From Pyrodictium delaneyi (GTDB taxonomy: Archaea > Thermoproteota > Thermoprotei_A > Sulfolobales > Pyrodictiaceae): a DNA stretch of 32,000 bases. Below are positions 2,274 through 25,032 of this stretch, piece after piece (position 1 is the stretch's first letter; each line of letters starts with the position of its first letter). The stretch lies in assembly GCF_001412615.1 (NCBI RefSeq), contig NZ_CP013011.1:240001-272000 (forward strand), in the 5' to 3' direction. A program made the position numbers and the translations under genes. A model generated the notes under the pieces. That model saw nothing but the letters and a program-made list of their open reading frames with translations, had not been told where the DNA came from and ran no database searches.

Positions 2274-3746
2274 TTAACGGCGTCTTACACCAGCCATAGC
2301 TACTGCTGCTAGTCCTAATACGCTGCCAACAATTATCATCAACCTCCATGGCTCGATGCCGCTGGTATTCTCGGCTGCACTACCTCCGATACTAAGGAGT
2401 AGACGCGTAACATTATGCGGGTCCTTGAGATTCTCGAACACGCTATGGGGAATAGGTATTAGTCCAAGCTCTCTAGCCTTTTCATAAGCACCTAAGGCTG
2501 ATGGATTATCAACAACAAAGTGGCAGTTGAGGCACATCAGGTACCGTATGGCTGTATTGTTAACCATATAGCTTGCATCACCCATACGGTCAGCATAAAT
2601 CATGACAAGATAACTAGTGTACCCTGCAGCAGTATTGTTAACCTCATTGACCGGGACATAGTAGGTACTAGAGTTCCCTGCATCATAGAACCATGTAAGC
2701 CGGCCACTCAGCAGCAGTGTTTCAACGCCTGGCTTAGCATAAGCACCCCGAGGCGCATAGACAAACATCCAGGATGCAGTCCCATTCCAACGTGAAATAT
2801 GGACAACTGGGTGGCATCGACACCCTATAGAAGCATGTACGCTATTGTTCACATAATTCAATATGTCAGGCGTAGTAGTGCCGTGGCATGATAAAGTGCT
2901 ATCAACGCCGCTTGCTCCAGAACAAGTCTGCCAAGAGTATTTGGAGTCGCGGATAGCATGGGGTAGTGTGCCGCTAAAGGTCGGGTCGCTATGACAGTCA
3001 AGGCAGTTATCTGGATGAATGAGTGGATAATTCTGCTGGATATAAGGTGCGGATAGCCCATCATAGTGATTCATATGGCAATACATACATAGGAGATATT
3101 CTCTGCCTGTTGGAACACCTTCTACATTATCTATATCAAAAGGATCCACAAATGCTATAGTATAGACACCTCTTGCCGCTACAAAGCTAGATGAAAAATC
3201 GTAGTGCGTATCAAGGGTAATCGACTTTGACGAGTTCTGGTCGACCTCAATATCGAACTTTTCAAACGACACTGGATATAGTATATTCAGGGCTTCTTTG
3301 GCTCCATCGACACGCGTGCTAACTATGTTATGGCAGCCGCCACTACGCCAAGAATCGTAGGAGCAGCCAGCAAATCCTGTGTAACCCGTAACTGATGTAT
3401 AGTAGTAGCCTCCTCCCCATCCAGTATGGCCTACATGGAGTGTTGCGTGGCATGTACATCCTATGTCTCTATGTGCTGTGGCACGCAGCGCCTCTATGGG
3501 TCCACTATTTATTTGATAGTGGCACTCTATGCAGCGGAATTCAGTGAATACGAAGTCGCCAGTTTCGCGCGAGGTAGTCTTATATTCTAGTCCGCCATGG
3601 CAGATGTGGCAGCCATACGGCCCGTGGTCAGCAGTAGGTGTATAGGCATGTGCAGTATCGCTGATAATTTTAGCAGCCACCAACACGCTAAATGCTATAA
3701 GTATGAGCGCGAATAGTCTGTTGAAGCTTATCCTGCATCTAAACAT
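2274..3746 (-). CDS. Secreted, C-terminally anchored multihaem cytochrome c (5 CxxCH + 2 CxCH + 2 long-spacer CXnCH); internally duplicated
   Basis: N-terminal signal sequence LFALILIAFSVLVAAKI. CxxCH sites are CHICH, CIECH, CMYCH, CLDCH and CLNCH. CxCH sites are IGCTCHATLH and IGCRCHPVVH. At least 8 N-x-S/T sequons. C-terminal hydrophobic helix plus RRR tail. GGTGG lies 10 nt upstream of the ATG, inside the upstream gene (19-nt overlap). Confidence 0.85.
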   Translation of the reverse strand: MFRCRISFNRLFALILIAFSVLVAAKIISDTAHAYTPTADHGPYGCHICHGGLEYKTTSRETGDFVFTEFRCIECHYQINSGPIEALRATAHRDIGCTCHATLHVGHTGWGGGYYYTSVTGYTGFAGCSYDSWRSGGCHNIVSTRVDGAKEALNILYPVSFEKFDIEVDQNSSKSITLDTHYDFSSSFVAARGVYTIAFVDPFDIDNVEGVPTGREYLLCMYCHMNHYDGLSAPYIQQNYPLIHPDNCLDCHSDPTFSGTLPHAIRDSKYSWQTCSGASGVDSTLSCHGTTTPDILNYVNNSVHASIGCRCHPVVHISRWNGTASWMFVYAPRGAYAKPGVETLLLSGRLTWFYDAGNSSTYYVPVNEVNNTAAGYTSYLVMIYADRMGDASYMVNNTAIRYLMCLNCHFVVDNPSALGAYEKARELGLIPIPHSVFENLKDPHNVTRLLLSIGGSAAENTSGIEPWRLMIIVGSVLGLAAVAMAGVRRR

Positions 3747-5266
3747 GATACCACCTGGAAACTCGTCACGATTATTTCTAAAGCGTTGTCACCATCAACA
3801 TCAGCTATACTGAGTGAGGGCATGGTAGCCTTGGCGTCATAATCCGTAGAAGTAAAAGGCGCATATTGTGCTACTGTATATTTATCCATTACATCATATA
3901 TTGTTATACTCGAACCTGTCTCTACATCAATTACATAGAGGCGGTAGACGGTAGTTAAAGTATAGTACGGCGTTATCAACACTACTTCGTAAGACGTGTC
4001 GTTATTTATGTCGGCAACAGATATTGTTGCGGCGTGAGATGTAAGAACTAGTGATTGCGCTGGCCAATAAGTATCGTACTGGTACTGCCATGATATCGAG
4101 AGGGAGCCATTACTGTAATCAAGTCTGTAAAGGTACCCGTCTATAGATGCTATGAATATTTCGGCCATCCCGTCGTTGTCTACGTCAGCTGCTGCGATGG
4201 ATGGCTGAGCATGCCATGCAAATGAACCAATATCGATAAATGTGATGATACTACCCTGGCGGGGATCTACAACTATGATACTGCCATTATATCCTACTCT
4301 TGATATTGTTGTTGTATCAATAAGCTCTATGCCAGCACTCACTATAATTTCGCGATAATTATCGCCATTAATGTCTGCAGATACAGGTGAATGTGTTATG
4401 AATAGACCCTTAAAGCCATTTCTCCACAAGTCGATGCTCTTAATTAGCTGGCCAGTTGCACCATCTATTACAAATATATATCCCCATAGATTTGTTACAG
4501 CTATGTCAAGAGTACCGTCGTTGTTAATGTCGTCAAGAAGTACTGGCGAGGCAGCAGATTGAAGACCACGACCAAAGGGTGTTTTCCAGAGAACTTCTCC
4601 GCTGACTGAGTTAATCCTATATGTGGCATTAGCAGTAGATACAACTATATCGATAACTCCGTCTCTATCGATGTCGTACACTAGTGGTGAGGATGCAATA
4701 TTGATTCCCACACGTTGCTCCCACTCAATCGTACCGCTTGCGAGATCCACACATCTTAGATAACCATCGCGGCACCCAATAATGGCTTCCAGAACATTGT
4801 CTCCGTCAACGTCTGCTAACGCTGGTGTTGAGTATAACGAAGCATTAACCGTTATGATTAACTTATATATTGTTGTAAAGTTATTTGTGTCGAGACCAGG
4901 TACATCAGATCCATAAAGTACTATGACTCTGCCTCCCGCGTCTACTGCAACAACCTCGGTAAAGCCATCATTGTCGACATCTGCTATTAAGGGATTCATG
5001 TTGAACCCCATTTGGCCTTCACGTGCTGGCATTATAAAGCTCCATACACGGTAAATTGTGTTGGAAAAATTACCAACTATAACATTACGAGGTATGAAGC
5101 TTGTATGGTATGGATCGTAGCCTAACTGGGTCCACCAGCCTGGAACAGACAACTGAGCCATAGATTTGCTAGTTTGAATGAGAGCAACTATCAGGATAAT
5201 AACTAATAATGCGGCTACCGCTATGCTTACCCTTCGGACAGTAGGGGTTAACGGCTTAGAGGGCAT
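3728..5266 (-). CDS. Secreted/anchored FG-GAP (integrin-alpha-like, Ca-binding) beta-propeller protein
   Basis: Signal anchor VSIAVAALLVIILIVALI. Eight spaced D-x-[DN]-x-D-[GNT] loops: DVDNDG, DVDGDN, DIDRDG, DINNDG, DINGDN, DVDNDG, DINNDT, DVDGDN. Each is followed by a hydrophobic beta-strand, as in FG-GAP/VCBS repeats. Confidence 0.8.
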   Translation of the reverse strand: MPSKPLTPTVRRVSIAVAALLVIILIVALIQTSKSMAQLSVPGWWTQLGYDPYHTSFIPRNVIVGNFSNTIYRVWSFIMPAREGQMGFNMNPLIADVDNDGFTEVVAVDAGGRVIVLYGSDVPGLDTNNFTTIYKLIITVNASLYSTPALADVDGDNVLEAIIGCRDGYLRCVDLASGTIEWEQRVGINIASSPLVYDIDRDGVIDIVVSTANATYRINSVSGEVLWKTPFGRGLQSAASPVLLDDINNDGTLDIAVTNLWGYIFVIDGATGQLIKSIDLWRNGFKGLFITHSPVSADINGDNYREIIVSAGIELIDTTTISRVGYNGSIIVVDPRQGSIITFIDIGSFAWHAQPSIAAADVDNDGMAEIFIASIDGYLYRLDYSNGSLSISWQYQYDTYWPAQSLVLTSHAATISVADINNDTSYEVVLITPYYTLTTVYRLYVIDVETGSSITIYDVMDKYTVAQYAPFTSTDYDAKATMPSLSIADVDGDNALEIIVTSFQVVSCLDAG

Positions 5267-5298
5267 AAATGTGCACCCTTTTAACCGAGATATTGGTC

Positions 5299-5306
5299 TT
5301 TTAAAA
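5299..5306 (-). promoter_or_regulatory. Candidate TATA box for the FG-GAP / cytochrome unit (5266 -> 2274)
   Basis: Minus-strand TTTTAAAA lies 33 nt upstream of the ATG at 5266. GGGTG sits between the box and the start. Confidence 0.4.
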
Positions 5307-5442
5307 CGTCCCAGTAATGGAGGAGCAATGTACTTGAGTGTTTTATCTAGGTCGCCTATTGACTTCCCACCTTACACACATTTATACTGTTTATCTAAAT
5401 AGTATCAACCACATATTATTTTATTCATCTTGGTTGGTGTAG

Positions 5443-5456
5443 CTAAAAGAAAAGAT
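5443..5456 (-). terminator. T-rich terminator candidate after octahaem gene 5476-6291
   Basis: Minus strand reads ATCTTTTCTTTTAG, 20-33 nt after the stop codon. Confidence 0.35.
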
Positions 5457-5475
5457 GCTTAAATGGAGCAACTTA

Positions 5476-6291
5476 TTACTTCCTGTGACACTCGGTGCAT
5501 CTATCGTCGCTTATGTCGATTTCTGGCAAATCCTTGTGGCAGTCTAGACAGGTTTTGCCTTCGAGGGCACCAACATAGCATTGTGGATCTAGTGGTACAT
5601 TCCATGTTGCGGTCTCTCCGTGACATCTATAACATTCTACGCTAGGCCCTGCAACTTCTTTGATTATATCCAGTACCTCTGGAGGTAAATTACGTGTAAC
5701 ATTCTGCTCCTCTAGAATAGTTATAGCAAAGGCATAACGGTGATAGCCTTTGTGTTTTTCAAGCATTCTCTCCAAGTCGTGGCATTGTGTACAGTCGCTA
5801 TTATGGGGCTTTAGTAGATGGCTTGAGTGACAAAATGTGCAGCTGTCAGCTATCTCTGCAACCTCTAAATGTATATTGTGGAGTGGTAATTTCGCTAAAT
5901 CTTCACGTCGGTGACATTGCAGACATTCATCTTCAATATGCAGCCGTGCCTCGAGTCTGAGTTCCTCGGGATCCGGTGCCTGGCCTGTTATTGTTAGGTA
6001 TAACTCGCGTATTGTACCCTGAGCTGTTTCTAGATCAAAGACATGGCATACATGACAGTTGAACTGTCTATGGGGAGATTCTTGGAATTCTTCATAGAAG
6101 GGCTTCATAACGTGACAGGTAGCACAGAAAACATTAGCAGCTGGACTGTGTTCAAAGAATGCCCATGCTGCATAACCTACCAGGATAATTAACACTACTA
6201 GCGCAACATTCACAGGTGTAGCTTTCTCCTTTAGATATGTTGTGATCTTTGAAATTGTTGAAGATATTTTAGCTTTGAGCCCGGTCAACAA
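5476..6291 (-). CDS. Membrane-anchored octahaem cytochrome c, NapC/NirT/NrfH-type N-terminus (paralog 1)
   Basis: One N-terminal TM helix (VNVALVVLIILVGYAAWAFF), then FCATCHVMKPFYEEFQESPHRQFNCHVCHV, the NapC/NirT signature C-x-x-CH-x-M...Y-x-E...S-x-H...CxxCH. Eight CxxCH sites in 271 aa: CATCH, CHVCH, CLQCH, CTFCH, CTQCH, CYRCH, CLDCH, CTECH. TTG start; no in-frame ATG lies before the TM helix. Confidence 0.85.
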   Translation of the reverse strand: MLTGLKAKISSTISKITTYLKEKATPVNVALVVLIILVGYAAWAFFEHSPAANVFCATCHVMKPFYEEFQESPHRQFNCHVCHVFDLETAQGTIRELYLTITGQAPDPEELRLEARLHIEDECLQCHRREDLAKLPLHNIHLEVAEIADSCTFCHSSHLLKPHNSDCTQCHDLERMLEKHKGYHRYAFAITILEEQNVTRNLPPEVLDIIKEVAGPSVECYRCHGETATWNVPLDPQCYVGALEGKTCLDCHKDLPEIDISDDRCTECHRK

Positions 6292-6324
6292 TGTTATATC
6301 CCAGCAGCTCGGGAACCCTTCGGG

Positions 6325-6338
6325 ATTATTAAAATTAA
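6325..6338 (-). promoter_or_regulatory. Candidate TATA box for octahaem cytochrome gene 5476-6291
   Basis: Minus-strand TTAATTTTAATAAT ends 34 nt upstream of the TTG start at 6291. Confidence 0.4.
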
Positions 6339-6482
6339 CATAGGAATAGCGAGGTCTGCAGATACGGTAAAAAATATTAAAAACGAAAAAATAGATATAA
6401 ATGTTATAATAGTATCCGGAGATATATAATAGAAGAAACGCTCAGCTATTCGCCACGATAGAGTTTACCAGGCTTATTGCTC

Positions 6483-8444
6483 TCAGATAATGCTGCTTAG
6501 GAGGCTACGTATCCTGCCGCCGAGATCGCGCACAGACTGGAGACTAGAGACAGCAAGTGCTGCAGCAATGAACGCAATAACTATGGCTGTTTGCTCCCAC
6601 GTTGAAAGACTACCGAGAAAGCCAGTGGTCTTCCCAGTACCGGAGCCTATAGGGCGAGGTATACGTATCTCCATTGACTCTAGGCTCAGTTTAGGACAAT
6701 CGGTGTGAAGCGAGACACCTAGCACATGTATATTGCTGCCTGGTTGCAGCCATAGCTGAAGTTGTTCAGGTTTAACGTAGACTCCATAGTCTCCTTCTAC
6801 TAATGCTATACGTGCGACTGGCGCCTCAACGAAGTAGCTATTAGCCTTGTCTCCACGCCCTACAAGGATAAATACATCACCAGCACAACCGGTATAGTTT
6901 CCAGTATTTACGCCACGGAAGACTATGAGGAGGCCCCGGCTGGTATCAATATTGTCTTGGTTGTTTAGGAAACCGTAAGCTATCAGTCTTGGTACGTCCT
7001 CCATGGTGAGACTACGCTTGAGTCTATTTACCTCGGAAAGAATGTTGTATTCCTCCCAGCTGCTCAGCTCAGCTGTATGATCATAGAGAACTTCCTCAAG
7101 TTTCTCGAGCCTCTTGGTGTAGTATGGCTCGCCTGGCGAGACCATAGCCTCGATATGATAACTATCCACTATGTATTTGAGGCCGGTCAATACTGGCAAG
7201 GTTAAATTAAACTTAGCAATACTCCCATCATCAAAAATAACGGCTACAGGCAAGATGCTTTGCGTTGTATTAACAGGTAGAATCGCAGCTATCTCTAGCT
7301 CAGCCGGACTAGTCTTGGAAATATTCCAGAATAGAGCGCCCTCAACGATGCCTGCCACTGGCCTTGCTGGTATCATGTCTGTAAATCTGACTACCCAGAC
7401 AGCTCGATTACCGTCAACGAGTTTTACGGTAGCATTGCTAAAGACTGCTTTTCTTGGCGGTAGTGTTAGTGCTATACGACCACCCAGGAGGCCAACAATA
7501 TTAACGCTCTTCTTCTCTTCAGTAGTGTTTACTGAGATTATAAGCTTGGTTATTAATGCTGGCTTCTTGGGTACGAGATTATGTAGTGCTATAGGCTTCT
7601 CGCTGTAGATGTAAACTGTCTCATTAAACATAGTATTATTGGTAGCTATACCCTCAAGGGTAATGGAGATATTGAAGGGTATCTTTGACTCCGATGTAAG
7701 GGCGACGGGATTTACATATAACCGGTAGGCTTCGAAGAGGCTTGGCTCGCCAACAATGTATACCTCGGCGAAGCGATAGCCTTTCATATTATTCAGACTG
7801 CATTTGACTAGCTTAATGTCAGTTAGTTTGCAATCGATTTTAGGAACATAGGCTAGATAGTTGGGGGATACGGTGAGCGGGAGCCCGTTATCACGGAATG
7901 CCCTGGCAAGATCTACTGCCGCGACAAGCAATGTATTGTTGCCTTTTTCGGCAAGCACTACGAGCTCTAACGTATTCACATTGTATATGTGAGGACCCTC
8001 TCCCCGACTATGTGGTAACAGTCGAGATAGACTAACACCACCGATAGGTCTCAGATAATATACGCCGCGCGAAACCTCTCCATCATCACTAACAATACTG
8101 TAGAAGAGAATCACATGTACAGCATTTAGCTCCCCTAGGAAACTTTTCAGCCGATTAGTCCTCATAGTTACTATTAGGCGTATATCCTCTGCCAATGAGA
8201 TATTTTCGTTTTTATATAAACCCTTGAAGCTAGCAGCTACTGAGCCGATAAACTTGCCATCGACATAGAAGCCAACAATTAGCTTCGAACCTCCCTGCTT
8301 TGCTATAATGGTTTTAGCAAGTGGTACACCAGCACTAGCTTCCCTTGAGCTATTTGCGGCAGCTAGGTGGGTAGAAGCAGAGATGAGCACCGATAATAGG
8401 AGTAGACTAGCTATACTAGCTAACTGGAGTGTCCGCGGGCTCAT
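6483..8444 (-). CDS. Large secreted surface (S-layer-like) glycoprotein candidate with C-terminal membrane anchor; no recognisable domain
   Basis: The ORF track extends to 8522, but that overlaps the upstream gene by 61 nt. The ATG at 8444 gives a clean signal peptide, MSPRTLQLASIASLLLLSVLISASTHLAAA. Many N-x-S/T sequons and no CxxCH. The C-terminus is ...TGFLGSLSTWEQTAIVIAFIAAALAVSSL plus a basic tail. Confidence 0.6.
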   Translation of the reverse strand: MSPRTLQLASIASLLLLSVLISASTHLAAANSSREASAGVPLAKTIIAKQGGSKLIVGFYVDGKFIGSVAASFKGLYKNENISLAEDIRLIVTMRTNRLKSFLGELNAVHVILFYSIVSDDGEVSRGVYYLRPIGGVSLSRLLPHSRGEGPHIYNVNTLELVVLAEKGNNTLLVAAVDLARAFRDNGLPLTVSPNYLAYVPKIDCKLTDIKLVKCSLNNMKGYRFAEVYIVGEPSLFEAYRLYVNPVALTSESKIPFNISITLEGIATNNTMFNETVYIYSEKPIALHNLVPKKPALITKLIISVNTTEEKKSVNIVGLLGGRIALTLPPRKAVFSNATVKLVDGNRAVWVVRFTDMIPARPVAGIVEGALFWNISKTSPAELEIAAILPVNTTQSILPVAVIFDDGSIAKFNLTLPVLTGLKYIVDSYHIEAMVSPGEPYYTKRLEKLEEVLYDHTAELSSWEEYNILSEVNRLKRSLTMEDVPRLIAYGFLNNQDNIDTSRGLLIVFRGVNTGNYTGCAGDVFILVGRGDKANSYFVEAPVARIALVEGDYGVYVKPEQLQLWLQPGSNIHVLGVSLHTDCPKLSLESMEIRIPRPIGSGTGKTTGFLGSLSTWEQTAIVIAFIAAALAVSSLQSVRDLGGRIRSLLSSII

Positions 8445-8461
8445 AATGGCATCAATCCCCG

Positions 8462-10357
8462 CTATCTCGGCTCTAGTGGATAGCTGTTCATATAGCTGAG
8501 CAACCGAGAGATTAGAGCCCAAGCGTATAAGTGTTCGGCCTCGTATATGAGTGTGTTAATACGTGCATTATTGTTCTTTAGTGCATAAAGTAAACGCTCT
8601 ACGTAGTAGTGTTGGACTATACCTGCCGGCTCACCGAGCCTTATAGAGGCAAGGAGTATGTATGGTAGTCGCTCGCTCCAGAGCTCCTCCACACCGGGAT
8701 GTAACGCGAAGAATGTAAGCGAGTACGCTAAACTCTTCACTGCATGATCTATTGCACTAGCAGGATTGCTCTCGAGCTGACGGGCAGCTATAGAAGCTTC
8801 ATATAGAGCAGCATTGGGTAAGTTAGAGCGTGCTTTTCCTGTCACAGATACTAGTAGAGCGTAGCGTGCATACTCTGCAGCTGTATCTACTATCTTCTCT
8901 GCAGCAATTTTCAAGTCCATAGTGCTTCTAGTAGTGTTGCTATCCGCGAGGCCGGAGTCTCTATAGACTTCACTGAGTACAACAAGTACTGCTATAGCCC
9001 GTGTGTAGTAGGATACTGCGCTACTATACTCGCGTATAGCAGCCTCGACGAGTTCAGACCTAGCACCAAATATGTCCAAAGCGTGCTCAATCTTTAGGGC
9101 TGAAGAGATCTTGCTATCACCACTAGCTATCAGCGAGGACGCTCTAGCGTATGCTGCCAGCATGCTACCACTAATGCGTGTCACGTCAACAGTATCTAAT
9201 AGTCTACGTGCCATGCTTCGTAGCATCTCTGCATAACCCTTGGTTATCTGGTAGCCGTTTTTGCCGTACACTAGGTAGACTTGGGATAGCGATGATAGTG
9301 CAGCTGCATAATAGTCTACTGCTACAAAACAGTAACCATTCCTCCTTGCATCTTCTGCAGCATCTATGTAGCCAAGTGCTTGAGCTAATTGCCTTACTAC
9401 TATGTCGCGTAGCTGGGGCCGGTCTATATACGATAGCAGGCTTCGTGCCTCAAGCTCGATTCGGGTAGAGAGCCTGGCAAGATACTCAAGATAATCACGT
9501 AGTATAGGGCACGCACTATCCCAGTAAAGACTCCAGAGGACGGTCCCGACATCGTTGTAGTCTAGACTCTGGTTAAAGAACTCTAGTATGCTGACAACCG
9601 GGATAGCGTTGCTAACCTTAACAGCTTCGGCGGCTACACCACAATCGCTAGACACGAAAGGTCCCATAATGTTGACCCGGCATACACGCGACAGTTCATA
9701 CTCTGAGCCACGGCCATATAGAAGCCTATAGCCAGCCTCCTGTGCACCTTCAGCCTTCACTTCTAGACCGCCTACAGCACCTACAAGCCCATCTAGTCCG
9801 AGCATACCAGTAGCTATGTATCCGTTGCCGACGGGCACTCCAAGGGCACGAAGGAAAGCCAGGTATATCTCAGGGCTAGCGCTGGGACCAGCAACAAGTG
9901 GCTTAGAGCCATTTACCGGCTCTATCCGGACATAGTAGTCAAAGGCCCAAGGACTGTGACCTATAGTTATAGCTGCAAGATAAGCGGCAAACTTTGTAGA
10001 CAACATGAATGATTCGTCGAAACCTACGCCAGTGGCGACAAGGGTTCCATTGCCAGGCTCGACTTGTACATAGACACGATAGAACTGAGGAACGTTATCG
10101 ACGTACCCTATCACGAGGGCTGATGAGGAGCCGTAGCTGGGTTCAAGCTTTGAGCCGGGTACGAACTCTATGGCTATTGATGATATATTTAGAGGTGTGG
10201 TATGCGCTATTGATGAATTTGAGGATCCACCTCCAAGGAGAGGTATTGTGGGCTCATATGCTAGGGCAAGACCCCCCATCACTAGAGCGACGGCTATAAT
10301 GCCGGCTAGGGCTACGAACCAGTCGCCTACAGCTGCTCCAGCTTCATGGGGGGTCAA
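8462..10357 (-). CDS. Membrane-anchored, ATPase-less Lon-type (S16) serine protease domain fused to a ~370-aa alpha-helical domain
   Basis: N-terminal TM helix. 'VEPGNGTLVATGVGFDESFMLSTKFAAYLA' resembles the Lon 'pGkGkl.lTG.lGdvMkES..aA' block. 'AGPSAS' (Lon DGPSAG, catalytic Ser) is followed 42 residues later by 'GGLEVK' (Lon GGLKEK, catalytic Lys). No Walker motifs. TTG start with GGTG 9-12 nt upstream, 15 nt after the stop of 10373-11077. Confidence 0.65.
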   Translation of the reverse strand: MTPHEAGAAVGDWFVALAGIIAVALVMGGLALAYEPTIPLLGGGSSNSSIAHTTPLNISSIAIEFVPGSKLEPSYGSSSALVIGYVDNVPQFYRVYVQVEPGNGTLVATGVGFDESFMLSTKFAAYLAAITIGHSPWAFDYYVRIEPVNGSKPLVAGPSASPEIYLAFLRALGVPVGNGYIATGMLGLDGLVGAVGGLEVKAEGAQEAGYRLLYGRGSEYELSRVCRVNIMGPFVSSDCGVAAEAVKVSNAIPVVSILEFFNQSLDYNDVGTVLWSLYWDSACPILRDYLEYLARLSTRIELEARSLLSYIDRPQLRDIVVRQLAQALGYIDAAEDARRNGYCFVAVDYYAAALSSLSQVYLVYGKNGYQITKGYAEMLRSMARRLLDTVDVTRISGSMLAAYARASSLIASGDSKISSALKIEHALDIFGARSELVEAAIREYSSAVSYYTRAIAVLVVLSEVYRDSGLADSNTTRSTMDLKIAAEKIVDTAAEYARYALLVSVTGKARSNLPNAALYEASIAARQLESNPASAIDHAVKSLAYSLTFFALHPGVEELWSERLPYILLASIRLGEPAGIVQHYYVERLLYALKNNNARINTLIYEAEHLYAWALISRLLSYMNSYPLEPR

Positions 10358-10372
10358 GGCTAGACACCGTGC

Positions 10373-11077
10373 TCAGCGCGAATGACATCGTAGACAATCA
10401 TCAACGTTAGTTACAGGCTTGAGTGAAGCATGGCAGTGGAAGCAGCCGAATCCTTCTACACTTGCACGAAACGCGCTTGCGGGTATTGGTATTTCCCATA
10501 GTGCTTGCTGTGAATGACACTGGCCACACACTATTACGCCGCGCCGGTACTGCTCAAGAGCATAACTGTGGAACCCGCCATGACTTGACCGGATATTCTG
10601 CATATTGTGGCAACTGAGACAATCGCTAGGTGTAGGCTTAACCTCGTGGCTAGAGTGGCAAATAGTACAACTCTTAGCTGTCGATATTACGCGGAAATGA
10701 ACAACGTGTATTGCTTGTTGCTGTAGTGTCACCGGGCTATGACAGCTTGTACACTCCTGCTCCATTCTCATCTTGCGTGCCTGGAGCTCATACATGTCGA
10801 CACGGATAAAACCCATCTCGGCAGCTATACCCCTAACATACATTGATAACGGTGGATCATGACATCTTGTGCATTTAAAGTTCTCGTGAGGAGTTCCCTG
10901 AAGTTGCTCGGCAACAGAATCCATTAGATGGCACGAGCGGCAGAACCCATTAACTATATTGGTATCGTTCCCACTCCACATAGCATATACACTCATGATT
11001 ACGACTGCAAACGTTATTGCAGATACTGCTATCATTCTTCTACCCTTTATAAGCTGTACTAGCCCAGACCCGTTCAT
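10373..11077 (-). CDS. Membrane-anchored octahaem cytochrome c, NapC/NirT/NrfH-type N-terminus (paralog 2)
   Basis: TM helix IAVSAITFAVVIMSVYAMW, then FCRSCHLMDSVAEQLQGTPHENFKCTRCH. Eight CxxCH sites in 234 aa: CRSCH, CTRCH, CTSCH, CTICH, CLSCH, CGQCH, CFHCH, CLRCH. ATG preceded by AAAGGTGA. Confidence 0.85.
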   Translation of the reverse strand: MNGSGLVQLIKGRRMIAVSAITFAVVIMSVYAMWSGNDTNIVNGFCRSCHLMDSVAEQLQGTPHENFKCTRCHDPPLSMYVRGIAAEMGFIRVDMYELQARKMRMEQECTSCHSPVTLQQQAIHVVHFRVISTAKSCTICHSSHEVKPTPSDCLSCHNMQNIRSSHGGFHSYALEQYRRGVIVCGQCHSQQALWEIPIPASAFRASVEGFGCFHCHASLKPVTNVDDCLRCHSR

Positions 11078-11112
11078 GATTGTTCACCTTTAGCTGCTAG
11101 CATCTATGCTTG

Positions 11113-11120
11113 TAAATTAT
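11113..11120 (-). promoter_or_regulatory. Candidate TATA box for the 10373-11077 / 8462-10357 / 6483-8444 unit
   Basis: Minus-strand ATAATTTA lies 36 nt upstream of the ATG at 11077, inside a ~590-bp AT-rich divergent intergenic region. Confidence 0.35.
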
Positions 11121-11590
11121 GTACTGTATTAGCTTCCTAAGTCGGTCATTCTCCATTCTTCTCTATCCCCACAGTTCATGTTTTTTATGATGCGTGCAAA
11201 AGTGCTGTGTTCTGTACGAATTCGGAGCTGTCAGCATGCAATGCCATTATTAATTATTTTACAATTACCTTCATGTAATTTTGCGGGCTACAAGCTACCC
11301 TTAAATAATCCTATTCCCGTATAGATATAAAAACGCATAAAAAATAAATAAATAGCTGTAAACACTCCGCTTAACAGCTATTTATACCATTAGCATAGTT
11401 ATGTCGTTGTAAAATTTGCAAGCACCTACAACTGTCTACGTTGTTTGAATATAGTGAGATATACAATGATAGATGCGCGATAGGAGGCTGTTGCAACACC
11501 CTATGTGCCGAGGCAAACATTATGTTAAATTGATGCATTTCTTTATTAAAATTACTGTAACATGATAAATGCGATAAATGGGAGATAGTA

Positions 11591-11596
11591 TTTATA
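11591..11596 (+). promoter_or_regulatory. Candidate TATA box for cytochrome gene 11665-12591
   Basis: Consensus TTTATA preceded by the purine-rich GGAGATAGTA (BRE-like), 69 nt upstream of the ATG. This implies a ~45-nt leader carrying GGGGGAT. Confidence 0.35.
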
Positions 11597-11664
11597 CCCA
11601 AATACGGCATCAAAACCTAATGAGAGTGATGAATGGTACGAATGATGTTAAACGGGGGATAAAA

Positions 11665-12591
11665 ATGAAGGTTCGCACCTCCCTAGTTGGGGCAATAACT
11701 CTCATAGCCATATTAGCTCTAGTAGCATCAGCGACGCCGGCTGCGGCTAGCGAAGCGCTACTCCGTGACCATCCAACAGTATGTTATGGCTGCCACTCAG
11801 CAAACATAACAGATACAACTGTAGGCCCACACGACGTGAAGGCAGCCGAGAATGCATGGTTCTACTGTCTAACGTGTCATTCTAGTGCAAATAACACTGG
11901 CCTCTGGAGCGGTTCAATATGGGGCACAAACTATGGCGAGCCGGCGCCGGCCGCTGGCGACTACGTACCAAATAGCGTACATGGACAGATAGGCTGTAAG
12001 TGCCATACAATAGTGCACGCAGGCTTCAACATAAACCCGACAGTCGGTGCTGGCGTGTGGATGTACTACTATCTACCAACAGTAAATGGAGGTGCAGCGG
12101 CACCGAATCCAAATGACCTGGTAAAGTACGTAACATTCTATAACGGTACTGGATTCTACACAAACGACACCAGCACTGCAACAGTTACCAGTACAACGCT
12201 ACAACTATACTACGACACGGGCACGAGTGCTGTACCAGTAGATCCGACGAATATGACTGACGCCAAAGTGTACGTGGGCTGGTTCTACATAAACGGTAGC
12301 GCGCCTAGCGGTGTCAGCGAGAGGTTCTACATATGTTTCAACTGTCACTTCCTAGTAGAGAGTCCAGCAGGCCTAGGCATGTATAAGATAGAGAACGGTA
12401 TAGTGAAGATAGGTATACCCGCCGAGGCACTGCAGCTCAATCCGCACGCGATAACTGAGGATGCCCTACAGCAGCTACTCTCCAGTGGTGAAGAGGGCTT
12501 CGCTATCGAAGGCTTCCCGGTAGCAGCTGCTGGCATAAACATACTGGCATCTCTGGTACTATTTGCGATCGTACTTTCCCGGAAGAAATAA
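11665..12591 (+). CDS. Secreted, C-terminally anchored cytochrome c (3 CxxCH + 1 CxCH); single-module paralog of 2274-3746
   Basis: The track ORF starts at 11578. The ATG at 11665 (GGGGGAT upstream) gives signal peptide MKVRTSLVGAITLIAILALVASATPAAA. Haem motifs are CYGCH, CLTCH and CFNCH, plus NSVHGQIGCKCHTIVH. The C-terminal block CFNCHFLVESPAGLGMY is homologous to CLNCHFVVDNPSALGAY of 2274-3746. The terminal hydrophobic helix ends in SRKK. Confidence 0.85.
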   Translation: MKVRTSLVGAITLIAILALVASATPAAASEALLRDHPTVCYGCHSANITDTTVGPHDVKAAENAWFYCLTCHSSANNTGLWSGSIWGTNYGEPAPAAGDYVPNSVHGQIGCKCHTIVHAGFNINPTVGAGVWMYYYLPTVNGGAAAPNPNDLVKYVTFYNGTGFYTNDTSTATVTSTTLQLYYDTGTSAVPVDPTNMTDAKVYVGWFYINGSAPSGVSERFYICFNCHFLVESPAGLGMYKIENGIVKIGIPAEALQLNPHAITEDALQQLLSSGEEGFAIEGFPVAAAGINILASLVLFAIVLSRKK

Positions 12592-12605
12592 CAAGGCAGT
12601 TAATA

Positions 12606-12655
12606 TTTTTGTTAATCGATCATCTCTAACATATTTTTGCATTTTGGTGAAACCC
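12606..12655 (+). terminator. T-tract terminator region after cytochrome gene 11665-12591
   Basis: Three oligo-T runs (TTTTT 12606-12610, TTTTT 12644-12648, TTTT 12652-12655) lie within 65 nt of the TAA stop. Oligo-T tracts are archaeal termination signals. Confidence 0.4.
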
Positions 12656-12801
12656 GTGTGATAGTATTGTTTTATCATGTATTCTAGGTACTATTACGGC
12701 AGATGTTGAAAGTATCTACAATAGCGGATAATCCAAATGCTTGTCTCCGCCTACTCCCAGGCTTCATTGTTGCCAGAGGTTAGGGGCATAGGTGCTGTAG
12801 A

Positions 12802-14325
12802 GTGCTGCTGGTTGATGTAGGACTTATTGGGCTGTCTCTCGTAGCGCTGTACTATGTTCTAACCGGTAAGTGGGAGCCTGGATTTGCTTCTAGGTTCACG
12901 TTCATAGCTTTCGGGCTCCTTGCCCTTCTAGGGGAGTACTATGGTGACGGATATGCTGGCATTGTTGTGCCGGTAGCTCTAGCTCTATTGCTTATACATT
13001 TATATGGCTGGGATGTTGCGTTCTATGCGAGTACACTCTATGGTTACTCGTATGGATTAACGATGATCGGCAATAGCTCTGATTGGATGGGCTCGCTTGC
13101 CCTAGGCCTGGTATATTCGGGGTTCGTTGCACTATTTTCTGTGTCTATTCATGTGCCGGGATGTAGAGGCTCGGAGAAGCGCTGTATGTCTGCTATAGTG
13201 TATTCAGGTTTTACGCTTGCAGCCGCCTATGTACTGTATATATTCTCTGCTATAGCCTACATCTCTAGGGTTCCCGACCATCGTGTGCTGTATGGATTCC
13301 CTGTTACCGCTGCTGTATCGATTATCGAGCCTTATGCTGGTATCCTAGCGTCTCTCGTCTACGTAATAGTTGCTGGCATGTGGCTGGGGGTAACTGTGGG
13401 ACTAGCAGCGCTAATGACTGTAGGGTTAGTGCTACTGTTGTATGTAGCCCGTCACTCGCTACTAGGGGGTATTGGTGACGTCAAACCTAGGGTGGCTATT
13501 GCCGGGCTTATCTGGAGCCTCATATCGGTGTGGTTGATGGCGTCTCCTCCGGAGAAGCTAAAGATTGTGGGTATAGTGACCGGACTCGGCCTATATAACT
13601 TTAGTCCAGTAATATATTACTACGTCTTCGGCCGGCTAATACTCGCTCTTGGCGTCATCCTCGTGGAGTTCTTGCTGGTAGCAGTTATGTGGCCCTCTCT
13701 GGGGCAGTTGGGCTTTCTGGCTGCAGGCAGCCTTCTAGCAGCTATTGTTGTCCTTAAGAGGCTCGGCGTAGCTAGGATATTGCCCTATATCGTTGCGGGT
13801 CTTATCGTAGTTGGAGGCTATACTGCTTCGTTGCGCGGGGAAGTGAAGATTCATAGTGGCAGCTATAGTATAACCCCAGGAACTCAGATACAGCTGCATG
13901 GGGTCAATTGTACACTTGACCTCACGGATACGAGGTATAGCAATGGCTGGGCCGAAGCAGTTTACAGCCTCCAGGACTGTGATGGTGTTTTCTGGTTGAA
14001 GTTGAGTGACTTCGAGTGGACTAGTGAGCCAGCACTAGGCTACACCTTGGCTGGAAGCGGTTGCGTCTATGCTATCGACCCGGCGCCGTCGCCTACACAA
14101 AGGGCTGAGGTACAGTTATGGCTGCTTACTGGTACGGAGCCTCGGCTTGAGGATGCACCGGTCGAGCTTATGTATAGGGAGGTGTGTGGTGTAAACTGGG
14201 TAGTTGCTGCTACAGTCATTATACTAATGCTACCGGTCGCCCGACTAGTAGCGGTGCATGCAGAGCGCATTGAAGACCTAGTCCGTAGGATGGTGTGGCG
14301 GCTTGGCTCTGGTAGGCGGAAGTAG
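12802..14325 (+). CDS. Polytopic (~11 TM) membrane protein with Cys-containing C-terminal extracytoplasmic domain and final TM helix; unknown function
   Basis: 507-aa ORF that is almost entirely hydrophobic for ~340 aa. A ~110-aa soluble segment with 4 Cys follows, then a last helix (VVAATVIILMLPVARLV). GTG start with GGTG 8-11 nt upstream. Its 3' end overlaps the next cytochrome gene by 23 nt. Confidence 0.65.
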   Translation: MLLVDVGLIGLSLVALYYVLTGKWEPGFASRFTFIAFGLLALLGEYYGDGYAGIVVPVALALLLIHLYGWDVAFYASTLYGYSYGLTMIGNSSDWMGSLALGLVYSGFVALFSVSIHVPGCRGSEKRCMSAIVYSGFTLAAAYVLYIFSAIAYISRVPDHRVLYGFPVTAAVSIIEPYAGILASLVYVIVAGMWLGVTVGLAALMTVGLVLLLYVARHSLLGGIGDVKPRVAIAGLIWSLISVWLMASPPEKLKIVGIVTGLGLYNFSPVIYYYVFGRLILALGVILVEFLLVAVMWPSLGQLGFLAAGSLLAAIVVLKRLGVARILPYIVAGLIVVGGYTASLRGEVKIHSGSYSITPGTQIQLHGVNCTLDLTDTRYSNGWAEAVYSLQDCDGVFWLKLSDFEWTSEPALGYTLAGSGCVYAIDPAPSPTQRAEVQLWLLTGTEPRLEDAPVELMYREVCGVNWVVAATVIILMLPVARLVAVHAERIEDLVRRMVWRLGSGRRK

Positions 14326-14953
14326 AGAATGGACTAGACGGCAACGCCTAATGCTGCTAGCGTTCATAGTGCTAGCTCTAGTAGGCCTCGTCGAGGCATT
14401 CTATCTAGCTACACCGGAGACGCAACTAGCTGTCTGTAAGAGCTGCCACGCCGACGTTGCAGCGATCCTAGAGGCTGGCAGCCATAGGAGTGTAGCAGAG
14501 GAGCAAGGATGCCGCGTCTGTCACCAGGATGCTGAGCCGCTAACTATACCCGACATGCTATCCGGGAGCTTCCAGGTGAGGGTCTCTACTGGTAGCAGGC
14601 CATGCCTGGCATGCCACTCGGAGATCCCTCATAAGCCGGGACTCCATAGTAGTCATGCATTCGTGTCTCAGAACTTCGGCTGTACAGTCTGTCATGACCC
14701 CCACGATCCTGCGATAAGGAAGCCATGCCTGGGCTGCCACGAGCGCTCGACCATGCTTGAAGCGCACAACTTCATGCACCAGGGAGCTTCCCCCGACTGT
14801 ACTAGATGCCATTTCGGCCCCGGGAAGCCGTCTCCCTACCCCAATATTCCCGGTCATGAGCTCTCAGGTGATGTCAACTGCTTTAGCTGCCATGATGTGG
14901 CTGTAACACCGCCAGACATAGTCCGGGTCGACTGTGCCAACTGTCACCGCTAG
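14303..14953 (+). CDS. Membrane-anchored octahaem cytochrome c, NapC/NrfH-like (paralog 3)
   Basis: TM helix LMLLAFIVLALVGLVEAFYLA. Eight CxxCH sites in 216 aa: CKSCH, CRVCH, CLACH, CTVCH, CLGCH, CTRCH, CFSCH, CANCH. Motif order and spacing match paralogs 1 and 2. TTG start at 14303; the alternative ATG at 14351 would remove the basic N-terminus. Confidence 0.8.
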   Translation: MALVGGSREWTRRQRLMLLAFIVLALVGLVEAFYLATPETQLAVCKSCHADVAAILEAGSHRSVAEEQGCRVCHQDAEPLTIPDMLSGSFQVRVSTGSRPCLACHSEIPHKPGLHSSHAFVSQNFGCTVCHDPHDPAIRKPCLGCHERSTMLEAHNFMHQGASPDCTRCHFGPGKPSPYPNIPGHELSGDVNCFSCHDVAVTPPDIVRVDCANCHR

Positions 14954-14976: not shown

Positions 14977-15348
14977 TTAATTAATGCCGAGCATCTCTTC
15001 CACTATTGATAATGCTTCCTCCACGGTTGTTCCAGGCTTCACAATCACCACACGGAGTCCCTGGCTCTCCATGAACTCCTTCCCGCCGGGCCCGAACGCG
15101 GTGGCAACTAGATGAGTGCAATCACGGTTTAGCTCTAGTATGCGTCTCCGCTTTTCCCCGTGTCTATGGCCGCCATGATGACCGTGATGGTGGTGCTCGT
15201 GGCCGGCATATGGGTTCTCAACACGTCGAATAAGCCTCCATCCATCCTCTTCACGGACATAATGGAGGTAAAACCGTGCATCTCCGAAGTGCCCTATCTT
15301 AACATGCTGCCCATCATCCGTAGCTATAGCCACGCATACCTGCTTCAT
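14977..15348 (-). CDS. NifB/NifX-type (dinitrogenase FeMo-cofactor-binding fold) small protein with His-rich insertion
   Basis: MKQVCVAIATDDGQHVKIGHFGDARFYLHY... and ...CTHLVATAFGPGGKEFMESQGLRVV are typical of the Nitro_FeMo-Co (NifX/NifB C-terminal) family. The insertion is HEHHHHGHHGGHRHG. Confidence 0.65.
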   Translation of the reverse strand: MKQVCVAIATDDGQHVKIGHFGDARFYLHYVREEDGWRLIRRVENPYAGHEHHHHGHHGGHRHGEKRRRILELNRDCTHLVATAFGPGGKEFMESQGLRVVIVKPGTTVEEALSIVEEMLGIN

Positions 15349-22881: not shown

Positions 22882-23280
22882 TTAGCCTTCGGTGTATGCA
22901 ATAAATCCTGGGCCTTCGATACGTTGAGCAACTATACCCCAACGACTACTCTCCTTATACTCCACGGTAATTTTCACTCCAGGTTTTATGTATTGTGATA
23001 TGAGGTCACCAGCCCATACATTCTCATGCTTAGCGCCGTCAATCTCTACTGTCCAGTATCCTCGTACTGAGATCTCTTTCCCATCTACAACGATATACAG
23101 TTTCTCGGGATCCACAGACTTTACTATACCATGTATGATGCTCTCTGCTTCGCCTTCTTCCTGCACATTTGGGTTAAAACTCCAAAGGTATGGTGCAACC
23201 CGGTCAGCATAGAGCGGAAACAAGGCTACAAGTATACCGGCCACAACAGCCACTATGAGGCCTACATGTATGTTCTTCAT
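22882..23280 (-). CDS. Small N-terminally anchored extracytoplasmic protein, beta-rich; hypothetical
   Basis: The ATG at 23280 is preceded by GGGTGGAG (the track start at 23301 lacks this). TM helix VGLIVAVVAGILVALFPLY, then a ~100-aa soluble domain. No recognisable motif. Confidence 0.5.
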   Translation of the reverse strand: MKNIHVGLIVAVVAGILVALFPLYADRVAPYLWSFNPNVQEEGEAESIIHGIVKSVDPEKLYIVVDGKEISVRGYWTVEIDGAKHENVWAGDLISQYIKPGVKITVEYKESSRWGIVAQRIEGPGFIAYTEG

Positions 23281-23333
23281 GCAACTCCACCCATAATCCA
23301 TTAATCCATGGGCGATTATTACAACGGTCGTGG

Positions 23334-24089
23334 CTAGGATGTGTCTCCTAGGTATGTTTTACAAAGCTCCAGAGCGTATTCTGGAACCTCGTGAATCTTC
23401 TGTGCCTCTATTCTACCTGTATCAAAGAAGCCTTTAACTACTTGAGCATGAAGCTTTATTACCTCGAATGCACAATCATTGTTAGCGACTTTAACTATTT
23501 TTACTGTCGTATCATTGAGCCACTTTATTTCCGTATGCACATACTTGCTTGTTATCGCAGCATCTACTCGGAACAATGGATCAAACGGCCTGGGGTTGCC
23601 ACCATGTTCGACTACACATTCCATCTGCATTACATGGCTTACTAGTGTTTCTAGTGCAGCCTTATCCGGTGCTGATATTATCCATATTAGTGTCTTGTTT
23701 TCTGGAAACTCCATTAGCTTATAGTTGAAGATATCGTGGTTATCGAAGAGCCATTTAATGTTCTGGCCAATTGGTTTATCGTTTAGGCCTGCAGTAATAC
23801 ATGCAGCTTGAATTGTGCTATTCATCTGCATCATGCCGTTGCCTGGACCATGAGGACCCATACTAGTCGCAATGGTAGTTGCAGTGGTTGTAGTCGTGGC
23901 TCCTGTCGTCTGTGTATATGCCGGCATAGTATTGGTGGTCGTCATTCCTGGTCCGTGCGAGCTAGGTGGTAGTGTAGATACTTCAGTGCTAGTTACTTGC
24001 GGCTGTCCATAACGGAATGTGTATCCTGCCATTATGCCTACAGCTGCTAGTATACCTACGAGTGCTATTATTCCTAACCTAGAGGGCAT
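23334..24089 (-). CDS. Anchored secreted protein with Thr-rich linker and Met/His/Gly/Pro patches; hypothetical
   Basis: The ATG at 24089 is preceded by AGGGTGG (the track GTG is at 24098). Signal anchor LGIIALVGILAAVGIMAG, linker TTGATTTTTATTIATS, and 'SSHGPGM' and 'MGPHGPGNGMMQM' patches. A ~160-aa globular domain with 3 Cys follows. Confidence 0.5.
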   Translation of the reverse strand: MPSRLGIIALVGILAAVGIMAGYTFRYGQPQVTSTEVSTLPPSSHGPGMTTTNTMPAYTQTTGATTTTTATTIATSMGPHGPGNGMMQMNSTIQAACITAGLNDKPIGQNIKWLFDNHDIFNYKLMEFPENKTLIWIISAPDKAALETLVSHVMQMECVVEHGGNPRPFDPLFRVDAAITSKYVHTEIKWLNDTTVKIVKVANNDCAFEVIKLHAQVVKGFFDTGRIEAQKIHEVPEYALELCKTYLGDTS

Positions 24090-24324
24090 TCTTGCCACCC
24101 TAGCAATTGTCTCGTTTATTCTACTCTTCCAGGTATCCTTGGCTACTCTAACTACTTATACATCTCACGCACCTTTTGTCTAGACGATTTGTCTATCAAT
24201 TTTTTATATGTTTAGAGAGAAATATTGTGTCGTGCCTGGGAGAGGCACTATAGTGGGTTGGAACCTCTGTAGGCCTGGAGAAGGGGTAGACGTTATTGGA
24301 GTACCGGTAGCGAGTTGATGAATC

Positions 24325-25032
24325 ATGAATTGGCACATGACAACGTACATGGGGCCGCATGGGGGTCACGGAGGTCCGCCATGGGGTAGACCCTATCCGT
24401 GGATGATGCATTTGCATGAAATGGGTACTGGTATGGCTGCTACAGGGCTAGGCTGGATCCTGGGAATTCTCTACCTTGTGTCGGCTGTAGCAGCAATTGG
24501 TGTATCCTTCCTCCTCTATCGCGGCTACTTGGTCTCGGGGGATCGGAGGCTAGCTTTGCTGGCTCTCGGATTCGGGCTTGTGGCTGCAGGCTCTGTTATG
24601 GACCTGGCTACGGGCATAATTGTCTCTACGAGTCTTAGCTGGCTCGCCTACATGATTGGCTACATGGTAATGCTGGCTGCACGCGATGTAGCTGAACGTG
24701 CTGGGGCAGAAGCGTACACAGCTACACCTCTAGCTCTGGCCACATGGCCGCCCACTATTGCTCCCTATCACTACGCGCCCGTAGCGATGATGGGTTCCGT
24801 GATTGCAGGCATACTGGCATTGGCGGCATTTCTCGGGATGCCGGGTAGGCTACGTGCTGCCGGCATAGGTGTCGCTGCTAGTCATCTATTGGAGGCAGTA
24901 GCGCTGCTAGGCATACTTTACCCTGGACTACTTATAACAGCTGTTGCTCTACGTGCCACATCACTAGCAGCTATGACATTGGTGCTTGTCTTGGCTGCAC
25001 GTGCGCCATCCACGGGCCGGGACTCTGCATGA
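24325..25032 (+). CDS. Polytopic membrane protein with Met/His/Trp/Pro-rich N-terminus; hypothetical
   Basis: N-terminus MNWHMTTYMGPHGGHGGPPWGRPYPWMMHLHEMGTGM, then ~6 hydrophobic helices. Confidence 0.5.
   Translation: MNWHMTTYMGPHGGHGGPPWGRPYPWMMHLHEMGTGMAATGLGWILGILYLVSAVAAIGVSFLLYRGYLVSGDRRLALLALGFGLVAAGSVMDLATGIIVSTSLSWLAYMIGYMVMLAARDVAERAGAEAYTATPLALATWPPTIAPYHYAPVAMMGSVIAGILALAAFLGMPGRLRAAGIGVAASHLLEAVALLGILYPGLLITAVALRATSLAAMTLVLVLAARAPSTGRDSA

Follow-up and report, generated by a model that had tools for sequence, protein, structure and literature searches.

The nine-gene island

The window analysed here, a 32-kb stretch of the genome of Pyrodictium delaneyi, a hyperthermophile that respires iron, holds at positions 2274-14953 an island of nine annotated genes, Pyrde_0256-0264, which we call A to I. 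We read it as the probable counterpart in this organism of the locus encoding PcECN, the subunit of the extracellular cytochrome nanowire (ECN) of Pyrobaculum calidifontis. The locus tags follow from gene order, running from the permease Pyrde_0254 to the pyruvate oxidoreductase Pyrde_0267-0270, and in Fig. S1 of Kashyap & Holden 2021 (PMC8105010) the island is drawn as "hypothetical membrane proteins". A reading made from the DNA letters alone, hereafter the sequence-only reading, spoke of eleven genes; its own list holds nine, and every open reading frame (ORF) in that list is present at its coordinates and on its strand. Contig NCQP01000006.1 of strain Hulk matches the window at 99.94% identity, with an exact match to the A gene, and in the type strain Su06 the proteins Pyrde_0262 and Pyrde_0260 match G and E at 100%.

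Two gene sets diverge from an AT-rich intergenic region of 587 bp (11078..11664, GC ~42%), the presumed site of both promoters. The set on the reverse strand, F-E-D(-C-B-A), begins with F (Pyrde_0261, 10373..11077, 234 amino acids (aa)), the second of three membrane-anchored octahaem cytochromes, NrfH-like and with a CxxCHxM motif. Then come E (Pyrde_0260, 8462..10357, 631 aa), a membrane-anchored protein in which a long helical domain succeeds an extracytoplasmic protease domain of Lon type (S16, Ser-Lys), and D (Pyrde_0259, 6483..8444, 653 aa), a bitopic surface protein with a signal or anchor segment and a C-terminal transmembrane (TM) helix. C (Pyrde_0258, 5476..6291, 271 aa) is a membrane-anchored octahaem with an NrfH-like N-terminal tetrahaem module and a C-terminal tetrahaem extension. 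B (Pyrde_0257, 3728..5266, 512 aa) is an N-terminally anchored FG-GAP beta-propeller, and A (Pyrde_0256, 2274..3746, 490 aa) is a tandem double-module cytochrome assigned to the PcECN family, with a signal peptide and a C-terminal TM helix ending RRR. On the forward strand lie G (Pyrde_0262, 11665..12591, 308 aa), a single-module tetrahaem cytochrome of the same family and a candidate nanowire subunit, H (Pyrde_0263, 12802..14325, 507 aa), a polytopic membrane protein, and I (Pyrde_0264, 14303..14953, 216 aa), the third membrane-anchored octahaem, which has no CxxCHxM. The B and A genes overlap by 19 nt, consistent with translational coupling, and H and I by 23 nt. A scan for bacterial-type promoters and terminators gave nothing above shuffled sequence, the models being bacterial and not applicable to archaea, and an Rfam search of the window returned no match.

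Haem-attachment motifs are concentrated in the island. In-frame CxxCH motifs number five in A, eight each in C, F and I, and three in G, a total of 32; this clustering is far beyond chance, because outside the island genes only five others occur in all six frames of the whole window. In addition CxCH occurs three times, at residues 97 and 309 of A and residue 111 of G, and A holds the two long-spacer sites, CX10CH (residue 128) and CX12CH (residue 275). Our recount in these five c-type cytochromes returned the same figures that the sequence-only reading had given.

Surface cytochromes A and G and the PcECN family

The identity of the island rests chiefly on A and G. The one PDB chain matched by G is 8E5F_A (phmmer, E=9.6e-10), to which A also aligns (E=1.7e-5). 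A seven-member family profile matches this chain at E=3.2e-33, over profile positions 8-275 and chain residues 8-380, that is, from the signal peptide to the C-terminal helix, and the next PDB match stands at E=0.04. PDB 8E5F is PcECN, the tetrahaem subunit of the P. calidifontis nanowire (UniProt A3MW92), which was recovered as filaments sheared from cells. On this homology we assign both proteins to the PcECN family, G as a single-module and A as a tandem two-module homologue. A 244-465 matches G 36-282 (BLASTP, E=3e-22) and A 5-106 matches G 2-120 (E=5e-5), and because both segments find G, we judge A to be a tandem duplication of the ECN module. Word-indexed protein searches with G, with the ECN-family profile and with E returned three to five close relatives each and missed PcECN.

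The resemblance of A and G to PcECN extends over the whole precursor, with a Sec signal peptide, four haem sites including an unusual CxCH as the third, the same conserved histidines and a C-terminal helix with a basic tail. In G numbering the invariant haem sites are C40xxC43H44, C68xxC71H72, C111xC113H114 and C224xxC227H228, and five further histidines (H36, H56, H106, H118 and H261) are invariant in the family; in G the third site reads CKCH and the C-terminal helix ends SRKK. G differs from PcECN in length (308 against 385 aa), is only ~28-30% identical to it and to the other Pyrobaculum-type subunits, and lacks their central insertion of ~80 aa. Members are either single-module (~250-385 aa) or double-module (~440-515 aa). 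The family is very small, and each additional cultured host is therefore valuable: an exhaustive profile search of 1.84 billion representative proteins found only 54 clusters at 50% identity. One member, P0051 (863 aa), joins an N-terminal polytopic domain (~400 aa, of H-like architecture) to a double-module ECN cytochrome. This may be a genuine fusion that brings both functions together, or else a gene-calling read-through.

At site 3, CxCH and CxxCH interchange between members of the family. PcECN in its full length, as recovered from its alignment to an orthologue of 75% similarity, contains CISCH, CINCH, CACH and CFNCH and no further CxxCH. Since PcECN holds four haems with three CxxCH and this CACH, and since site 3 alternates with CxxCH, we infer that CxCH is a feature of the PcECN family and that the three island CxCH sites very probably bind haem. 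An origin of these motifs by chance, or as metal sites, was rejected: they are invariant, interchangeable with CxxCH and needed for the fourth haem of PcECN. The swap is seen even between close relatives (for example GCKCHSVLH against GCKGCHAVLH), when the representatives P0013, P0017, P0021, P0025 and P0026 are set against P0016, P0018 and others. With its one-residue spacer CxCH is a very unusual haem c motif that may need a particular CcmF, and Ccm genes adjoin the subunit gene in five of the loci compared below (L002, L008, L010, L022 and L023). As to the long-spacer sites of A, CX12CH falls at haem site 2 of module 2 in the alignment. CX10CH corresponds to an element of the A-type clade, C-Xn-(C)H, that varies and whose second cysteine is not universal, so that haem binding there is uncertain. 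A is accordingly predicted from its motifs to carry 8-9 haems, and the island total would come to ~36-37.

Hydrophobicity analysis agrees with the sequence-only reading that A and G are secreted and C-terminally anchored, each having a signal peptide and a C-terminal helix with a basic tail. That helix and tail are kept in every full-length family member, the PcECN precursor included. Their retention might be taken to mean that A and G never leave the membrane, and that, as anchored monomers or short oligomers, they relay electrons over the pseudo-periplasm only as far as the S-layer, the point at which mineral and cell must meet. The strict need of P. delaneyi for direct contact with its mineral acceptor (PMC8105010) would fit such a tethered conduit, as would the absence from G of the ~80-aa insertion. 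Yet the PcECN precursor has the same helix and was nevertheless sheared from cells as filaments, so the anchor is compatible with polymerisation, and the conserved neighbouring protease suggests that the subunits are processed. We consider permanent tethering unlikely, though a serious candidate.

Membrane-anchored octahaem cytochromes

C, F and I form one family, in which all eight CxxCH are invariant in a ten-member alignment, and hydrophobicity analysis places an N-terminal anchor on each of them, as had been claimed. The sequence-only reading also gave all three a NapC/NirT-type quinol-dehydrogenase N-terminus; this is supported for C and F, and for I the signal is faint. Against the NCBIfam NrfH model the E-values are 3.4e-13 for C, 7.2e-7 for F and 0.034 for I, all under the equivalog cut-off. 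The Pfam model Cytochrom_NNT (PF03264, cut-off 24.1 bits) scores C at 24.3 and F at 23.9 bits and does not match I, and C matches the PDB NrfH chain 2J7A_C at E=1.3e-4. The CxxCHxM motif at haem 1 reads CATCHVM in C and CRSCHLM in F; I has CKSCHAD instead. We conclude that C and F probably carry an NrfH-type quinol-dehydrogenase module and that I is divergent. Orthologues of I follow an H-like gene in L006, L007 and L009.

The octahaems resemble the NrfH/NapC/CymA proteins (PF03264; Desulfovibrio vulgaris NrfH, PDB 2J7A) in an N-terminal TM helix followed by a putative tetrahaem module of that type, with CxxCHxM in C and F. They differ in adding a four-haem C-terminal extension, in the missing methionine signature of I, in scores that lie at or below the curated cut-offs, and in the lack of a catalytic partner such as NrfA. 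Pfam and NCBIfam searches found no enzyme of the molybdopterin, NrfA, Nir or HAO type anywhere in the window, and there was no catalytic reductase beside the orthologous clusters examined. The view that the island has no terminal reductase is thereby upheld, both in the window and at those clusters, and the orthologues examined do not come with an adjacent enzyme for a soluble substrate.

The protease E and partner proteins B, D and H

E has the catalytic dyad of a Lon-type protease, with Ser159 in GPSAS and Lys201 at +42. From the single sequence the Lon match is weak (E about 0.001-0.05). The family profile finds PDB Lon protease domains at 2e-12 to 1e-9 (3M6A, 2.2e-12; 1XHK, 6.7e-10; also 1Z0B), and the dyad, with its lysine ~42 residues on, is invariant in six divergent family members. 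The PDB matches cover the protease domain only, and no AAA+ or P-loop region was found in Pfam, NCBIfam or PDB searches. Because it lacks the AAA+ module, E is judged to be a Lon-type protease domain protein and not a canonical Lon, so that the ATPase-less protease proposed from the letters gains solid footing at the level of the family. In the versions encoded in L002 and L008 a C-terminal anchor accompanies a hydrophobic N-terminal stretch, legible as a signal peptide, and this puts the E-type Lon domain on the extracytoplasmic side. Homologues of E adjoin the ECN subunit gene in L002, L005, L006, L008, L009, L010, L014 and L018-L021. Our literature search found no paper linking a Lon protease with cytochrome nanowires; its coverage did not extend to the text of Baquero et al. 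2023, which reportedly describes the PcECN nanowire of Pyrobaculum calidifontis in Cell.

H has 11 hydrophobic segments in its 507 aa, as the sequence-only reading had estimated. They are arranged as ~10 TM helices, an extracytoplasmic domain of ~120 aa with four conserved cysteines, and a final TM helix. No match to H was found in PDB, Pfam or NCBIfam. A role as cytochrome b was rejected, as an alignment with orthologues shows no conserved histidine, and a CcsBA-type haem lyase or an archaeosortase was rejected for want of a family match and because no Trp-rich WWD-type motif was seen in the protein. Wherever a locus extends far enough, a polytopic membrane protein is encoded directly downstream of the single-module ECN gene, with 7-13 hydrophobic segments and a cysteine-containing insert of ~115-135 aa before the last helix. 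Between H and its positional equivalents (L003, L008, L010 and the N-terminus of P0051) neither phmmer nor hhalign detected homology; what they have in common is architecture and position only.

The other two partners are also as first described. B scores well above the Pfam thresholds (FG-GAP_3, PF13517, E=3.5e-23, 82.4 bits against a cut-off of 26.9; FG-GAP, PF01839, E=1.7e-20, 72.9 bits) and has eight DxDxDG-type motifs, in keeping with an eight-repeat propeller. D, the glycoprotein-like surface protein of ~650 aa, has anchors at both ends and 12 N-glycosylation sequons and gave no Pfam, NCBIfam or PDB match. Homologues of D occur in L006 and L009, and proteins of the same architecture are encoded at the equivalent position in L002 and L010.

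Orthologous loci across archaeal lineages

The contig of another assembly, L009, has all nine genes in the order of the window, with an E-like protein 43-44% identical to E. L006 has seven of the nine, F-E-D-C being divergent from G-H-I and A and B missing, and in both loci the divergent layout around an intergenic region is kept. Among the loci compared, an FG-GAP propeller turned up solely in clusters of Pyrodictiaceae type, namely the window and L009 (where it precedes the A-like gene), and none was found in the Pyrobaculum-type loci. The island has a GC content of 46.7% against 54-56% in its flanks, and third-position GC is 37-50% in genes A to H against 59-72% in the housekeeping neighbours. 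The orthologous clusters of L009 (5573-18014) and L006 (4192-13000) likewise have ~47% GC and wholly different flanking genes. By its composition the island is foreign in P. delaneyi, and this, together with orthologues of like composition between different flanks, suggests that the whole cluster moved laterally within the Pyrodictiaceae.

More distant loci share a part of this set. In L002, from the Geothermarchaeota, an octahaem gene precedes the ECN gene, and with them occur a divergent Lon-like gene and genes for a D-type protein, CcmF, CcmC, CcmA and CcmB. A scan of genome contigs yielded only four loci, most of them short, whereas a metagenome scan recovered Pyrobaculum-type loci, among them L010, which encodes the PcECN orthologue itself (E=3e-160). 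Its order is octahaem, two 4Fe-4S proteins, NrfD, a bitopic sequon-rich protein, octahaem, Lon-like protease, PcECN, polytopic membrane protein, CcmF-like, double-module ECN, CcmC-like and CcmA, and parts of this order recur within each of L008, L014 and L018-L021. The subunit gene thus has octahaem and Lon-like genes at its flanks in all three groups of loci (Pyrobaculum-type, Desulfurococcales/Pyrodictiaceae and Geothermarchaeota), and, except in the Geothermarchaeota locus, a gene for a polytopic membrane protein as well. The PcECN locus and the island have in common the octahaem cytochrome, the Lon-like protease, the polytopic membrane protein and the double-module paralogue; they differ in that the Pyrobaculum-type loci contain Ccm maturation genes and an NrfCD-like Fe-S/membrane module, whereas the island has the FG-GAP propeller instead.

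In L010 (3355-5799 and 14-730) the NrfCD-like module of two 4Fe-4S dicluster proteins and NrfD-type subunits lies beside an octahaem, and there is no catalytic molybdopterin subunit. This module, which the Pyrodictium island lacks, is a possible second quinol-oxidising entry point.

A proposed extracellular nanowire locus in Pyrodictium

We propose, with a probability of roughly 60%, that the island is the P. delaneyi version of a PcECN-type nanowire gene cluster. Under this proposal the NrfH-like octahaems would draw electrons from methylmenaquinol at the membrane's outer face and hand them to the ECN-family cytochromes. These would either keep their hold on the membrane through the C-terminal helix or polymerise, as happens in Pyrobaculum, into a haem wire that crosses the wide pseudo-periplasm and the S-layer to an insoluble acceptor or to another cell. 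E would act as a processing protease on the subunits, for instance by clipping off the C-terminal anchor, H could serve as a membrane platform for assembly or anchoring, and A (with the propeller B) and D may be accessory parts of the base, tip or surface. Such a mechanism suits P. delaneyi, which must be in direct contact with ferrihydrite, uses no shuttles and has no conductive-pilus candidates (PMC8105010), and Ccm haem-maturation genes, which the sequence-only reading had named as a check, have been reported for the species (PMC5556600). The chain from quinol through octahaem to surface cytochrome that it envisaged fits our results, given that A and G are homologues of a structurally proven nanowire subunit and that no reductase is present; the kinship with PcECN went unrecognised there.

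Several observations weigh against the proposal. No filament has been observed in any Pyrodictium. G is no more than a candidate for polymerisation, given its low identity to the Pyrobaculum-type subunits and its missing insertion. For E, H, D, B and A the suggested roles derive solely from topology and from the genes around them, and AlphaFold2 models were unusable for H (single sequence, predicted local distance difference test (pLDDT) 44) and for E (four-sequence alignment, pLDDT 41.5). The distant ECN-family loci L022 and L023, with Ccm genes nearby, have no detectable Lon-like or octahaem neighbours. In the published proteome (PMC8105010) Pyrde_0256, 0258 and 0259 were detected with no difference between ferrihydrite and nitrate (adjusted p=1), so that the lack of induction by an insoluble acceptor, which the sequence-only reading had counted against itself, is in part what was seen; Pyrde_0260 and 0263 were detected and are untagged. 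The proteins B, F, G and I (Pyrde_0257, 0261, 0262 and 0264) are absent from the whole-cell tables, and the cytochrome complex induced by iron is encoded at another locus, Pyrde_0784-0787, together with two molybdoenzymes (PMC8105010). The existing expression data do not support our proposal.

P. calidifontis, which makes PcECN, is not known as a mineral respirer, and this counts for a different explanation of the island as a general hub of electron distribution. Constitutive octahaem quinol dehydrogenases would then feed reductases encoded elsewhere, such as the Nap nitrate reductase or the iron-induced molybdopterin enzymes Pyrde_0919-0921 and Pyrde_1511-1513, with the ECN-like proteins as periplasmic wiring. 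C (Pyrde_0258) is the most abundant island protein in the proteomics and is abundant on nitrate and ferrihydrite with no significant change, and the proteome authors propose that cytochromes feed outward-facing molybdoenzymes (PMC8105010). We find the hub quite improbable all the same, because no catalytic reductase adjoins the orthologous clusters examined, because the solved homologue is an extracellular filament, and because a dedicated protease and membrane partner would be unexpected for a simple periplasmic relay. Expression independent of the electron acceptor would also suit wires that link cells in the Pyrodictium network, that take electrons inward from reduced minerals or partner cells, or that have a structural or biofilm role; bundled bacterial cytochrome wires have been proposed to act in cell-cell transfer and biofilm formation. 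As an H2-oxidising respirer, P. delaneyi needs no external electron donor (PMC8105010), and we regard roles of this kind as very improbable.

If the island is a nanowire locus, as we favour, it can be set beside several known systems. The 'Mcc' complex of the same organism, Pyrde_0784-0787 (PMC8105010), similarly pairs a membrane octahaem with a large multihaem partner and is proposed to carry methylmenaquinol electrons outward; its genes lie elsewhere, and ferrihydrite induces its octahaem 60-fold, whereas the island proteins are not induced. Like the bacterial Mtr/Pcc conduits, the island would provide a multihaem chain that exports respiratory electrons, here across a single membrane and S-layer envelope. 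Pfam and NCBIfam searches found no beta-barrel porin and no MtrA/MtrC-type decahaem in the island, only partial, sub-threshold matches to decahaem models, and the partner set does differ from Mtr/Pcc as had been claimed. The novelty that this difference implied was overstated, as the island appears to be the Pyrodictium counterpart of a known archaeal filament locus. We judge from the sequences that it belongs to that known kind and is not an unprecedented system; what may be new is that the Pyrodictium island is linked to PcECN and that a protease and a membrane protein are conserved as partners.

Small multihaem subunits polymerised outside the cell are also known from Geobacter and Desulfuromonas, as OmcS, OmcE and OmcZ. 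The OmcE clusters encode beta-propeller proteins and extra multihaem cytochromes, which parallel B and C, F and I. In a parallel to E, OmcZ needs a dedicated protease, OzpA. The two groups differ in that no search found sequence homology between them, in the outer membrane and porin-cytochrome complexes of the bacterial systems, in the unrelated accessory proteins and in the type of protease, subtilisin there and Lon here.

Secretion, processing and assembly are unanswered questions for every known cytochrome nanowire. The Lon-type protease, the polytopic membrane protein and the NrfH-like octahaems, which stand beside the subunit in most lineages sampled, are candidates for the assembly machinery and also for the route by which electrons enter the wire. 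It is tempting to go further and suppose that the conserved neighbours are the biogenesis machinery of archaeal cytochrome nanowires. The Lon-type protease might then free the subunit from its C-terminal anchor, the fast-evolving polytopic protein might form a platform for assembly and anchoring, and the double-module paralogue (with the FG-GAP propeller in the Pyrodictiaceae) might form the base or tip, while CxCH and the frequent adjacency of CcmF and CcmC might reflect an undescribed specificity of haem attachment. As a whole this scheme is possible but doubtful, and the maturase role of the protease is inferred. For the passage of electrons across the wide pseudo-periplasm and S-layer of P. 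delaneyi, a PcECN-type locus offers a concrete hypothesis that cryo-electron microscopy can test.

Other features of the window

The rest of the window is housekeeping in character, with genes for pyruvate oxidoreductase, NadA, phosphoribosyl pyrophosphate synthetase and glutamate synthase. Four ORFs in a stretch of lower GC (45-52%), at 22882-23301, 23334-24098, 24325-25032 and 25715-26212, have no Pfam match at E<=0.001. The protein with a glutamate-synthase domain at 29304-31415 on the forward strand contains a single in-frame CxxCH (CIMCH at 30351). It is probably Pyrde_0283, the 'monohaem cytochrome annotated as glutamate synthase' among the 17 cytochromes counted previously (PMC8105010), and its CIMCH is most likely a chance motif in a cytoplasmic enzyme. 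Adjoining the island on the reverse strand, the small protein at 14977-15348 is Pyrde_0265, a Nitro_FeMo-Co domain protein in the 2021 supplement (PMC8105010). It is present in the proteome, untagged, and has a His-rich stretch, HEHHHHGHHGGHRHG, that suggests metal binding.

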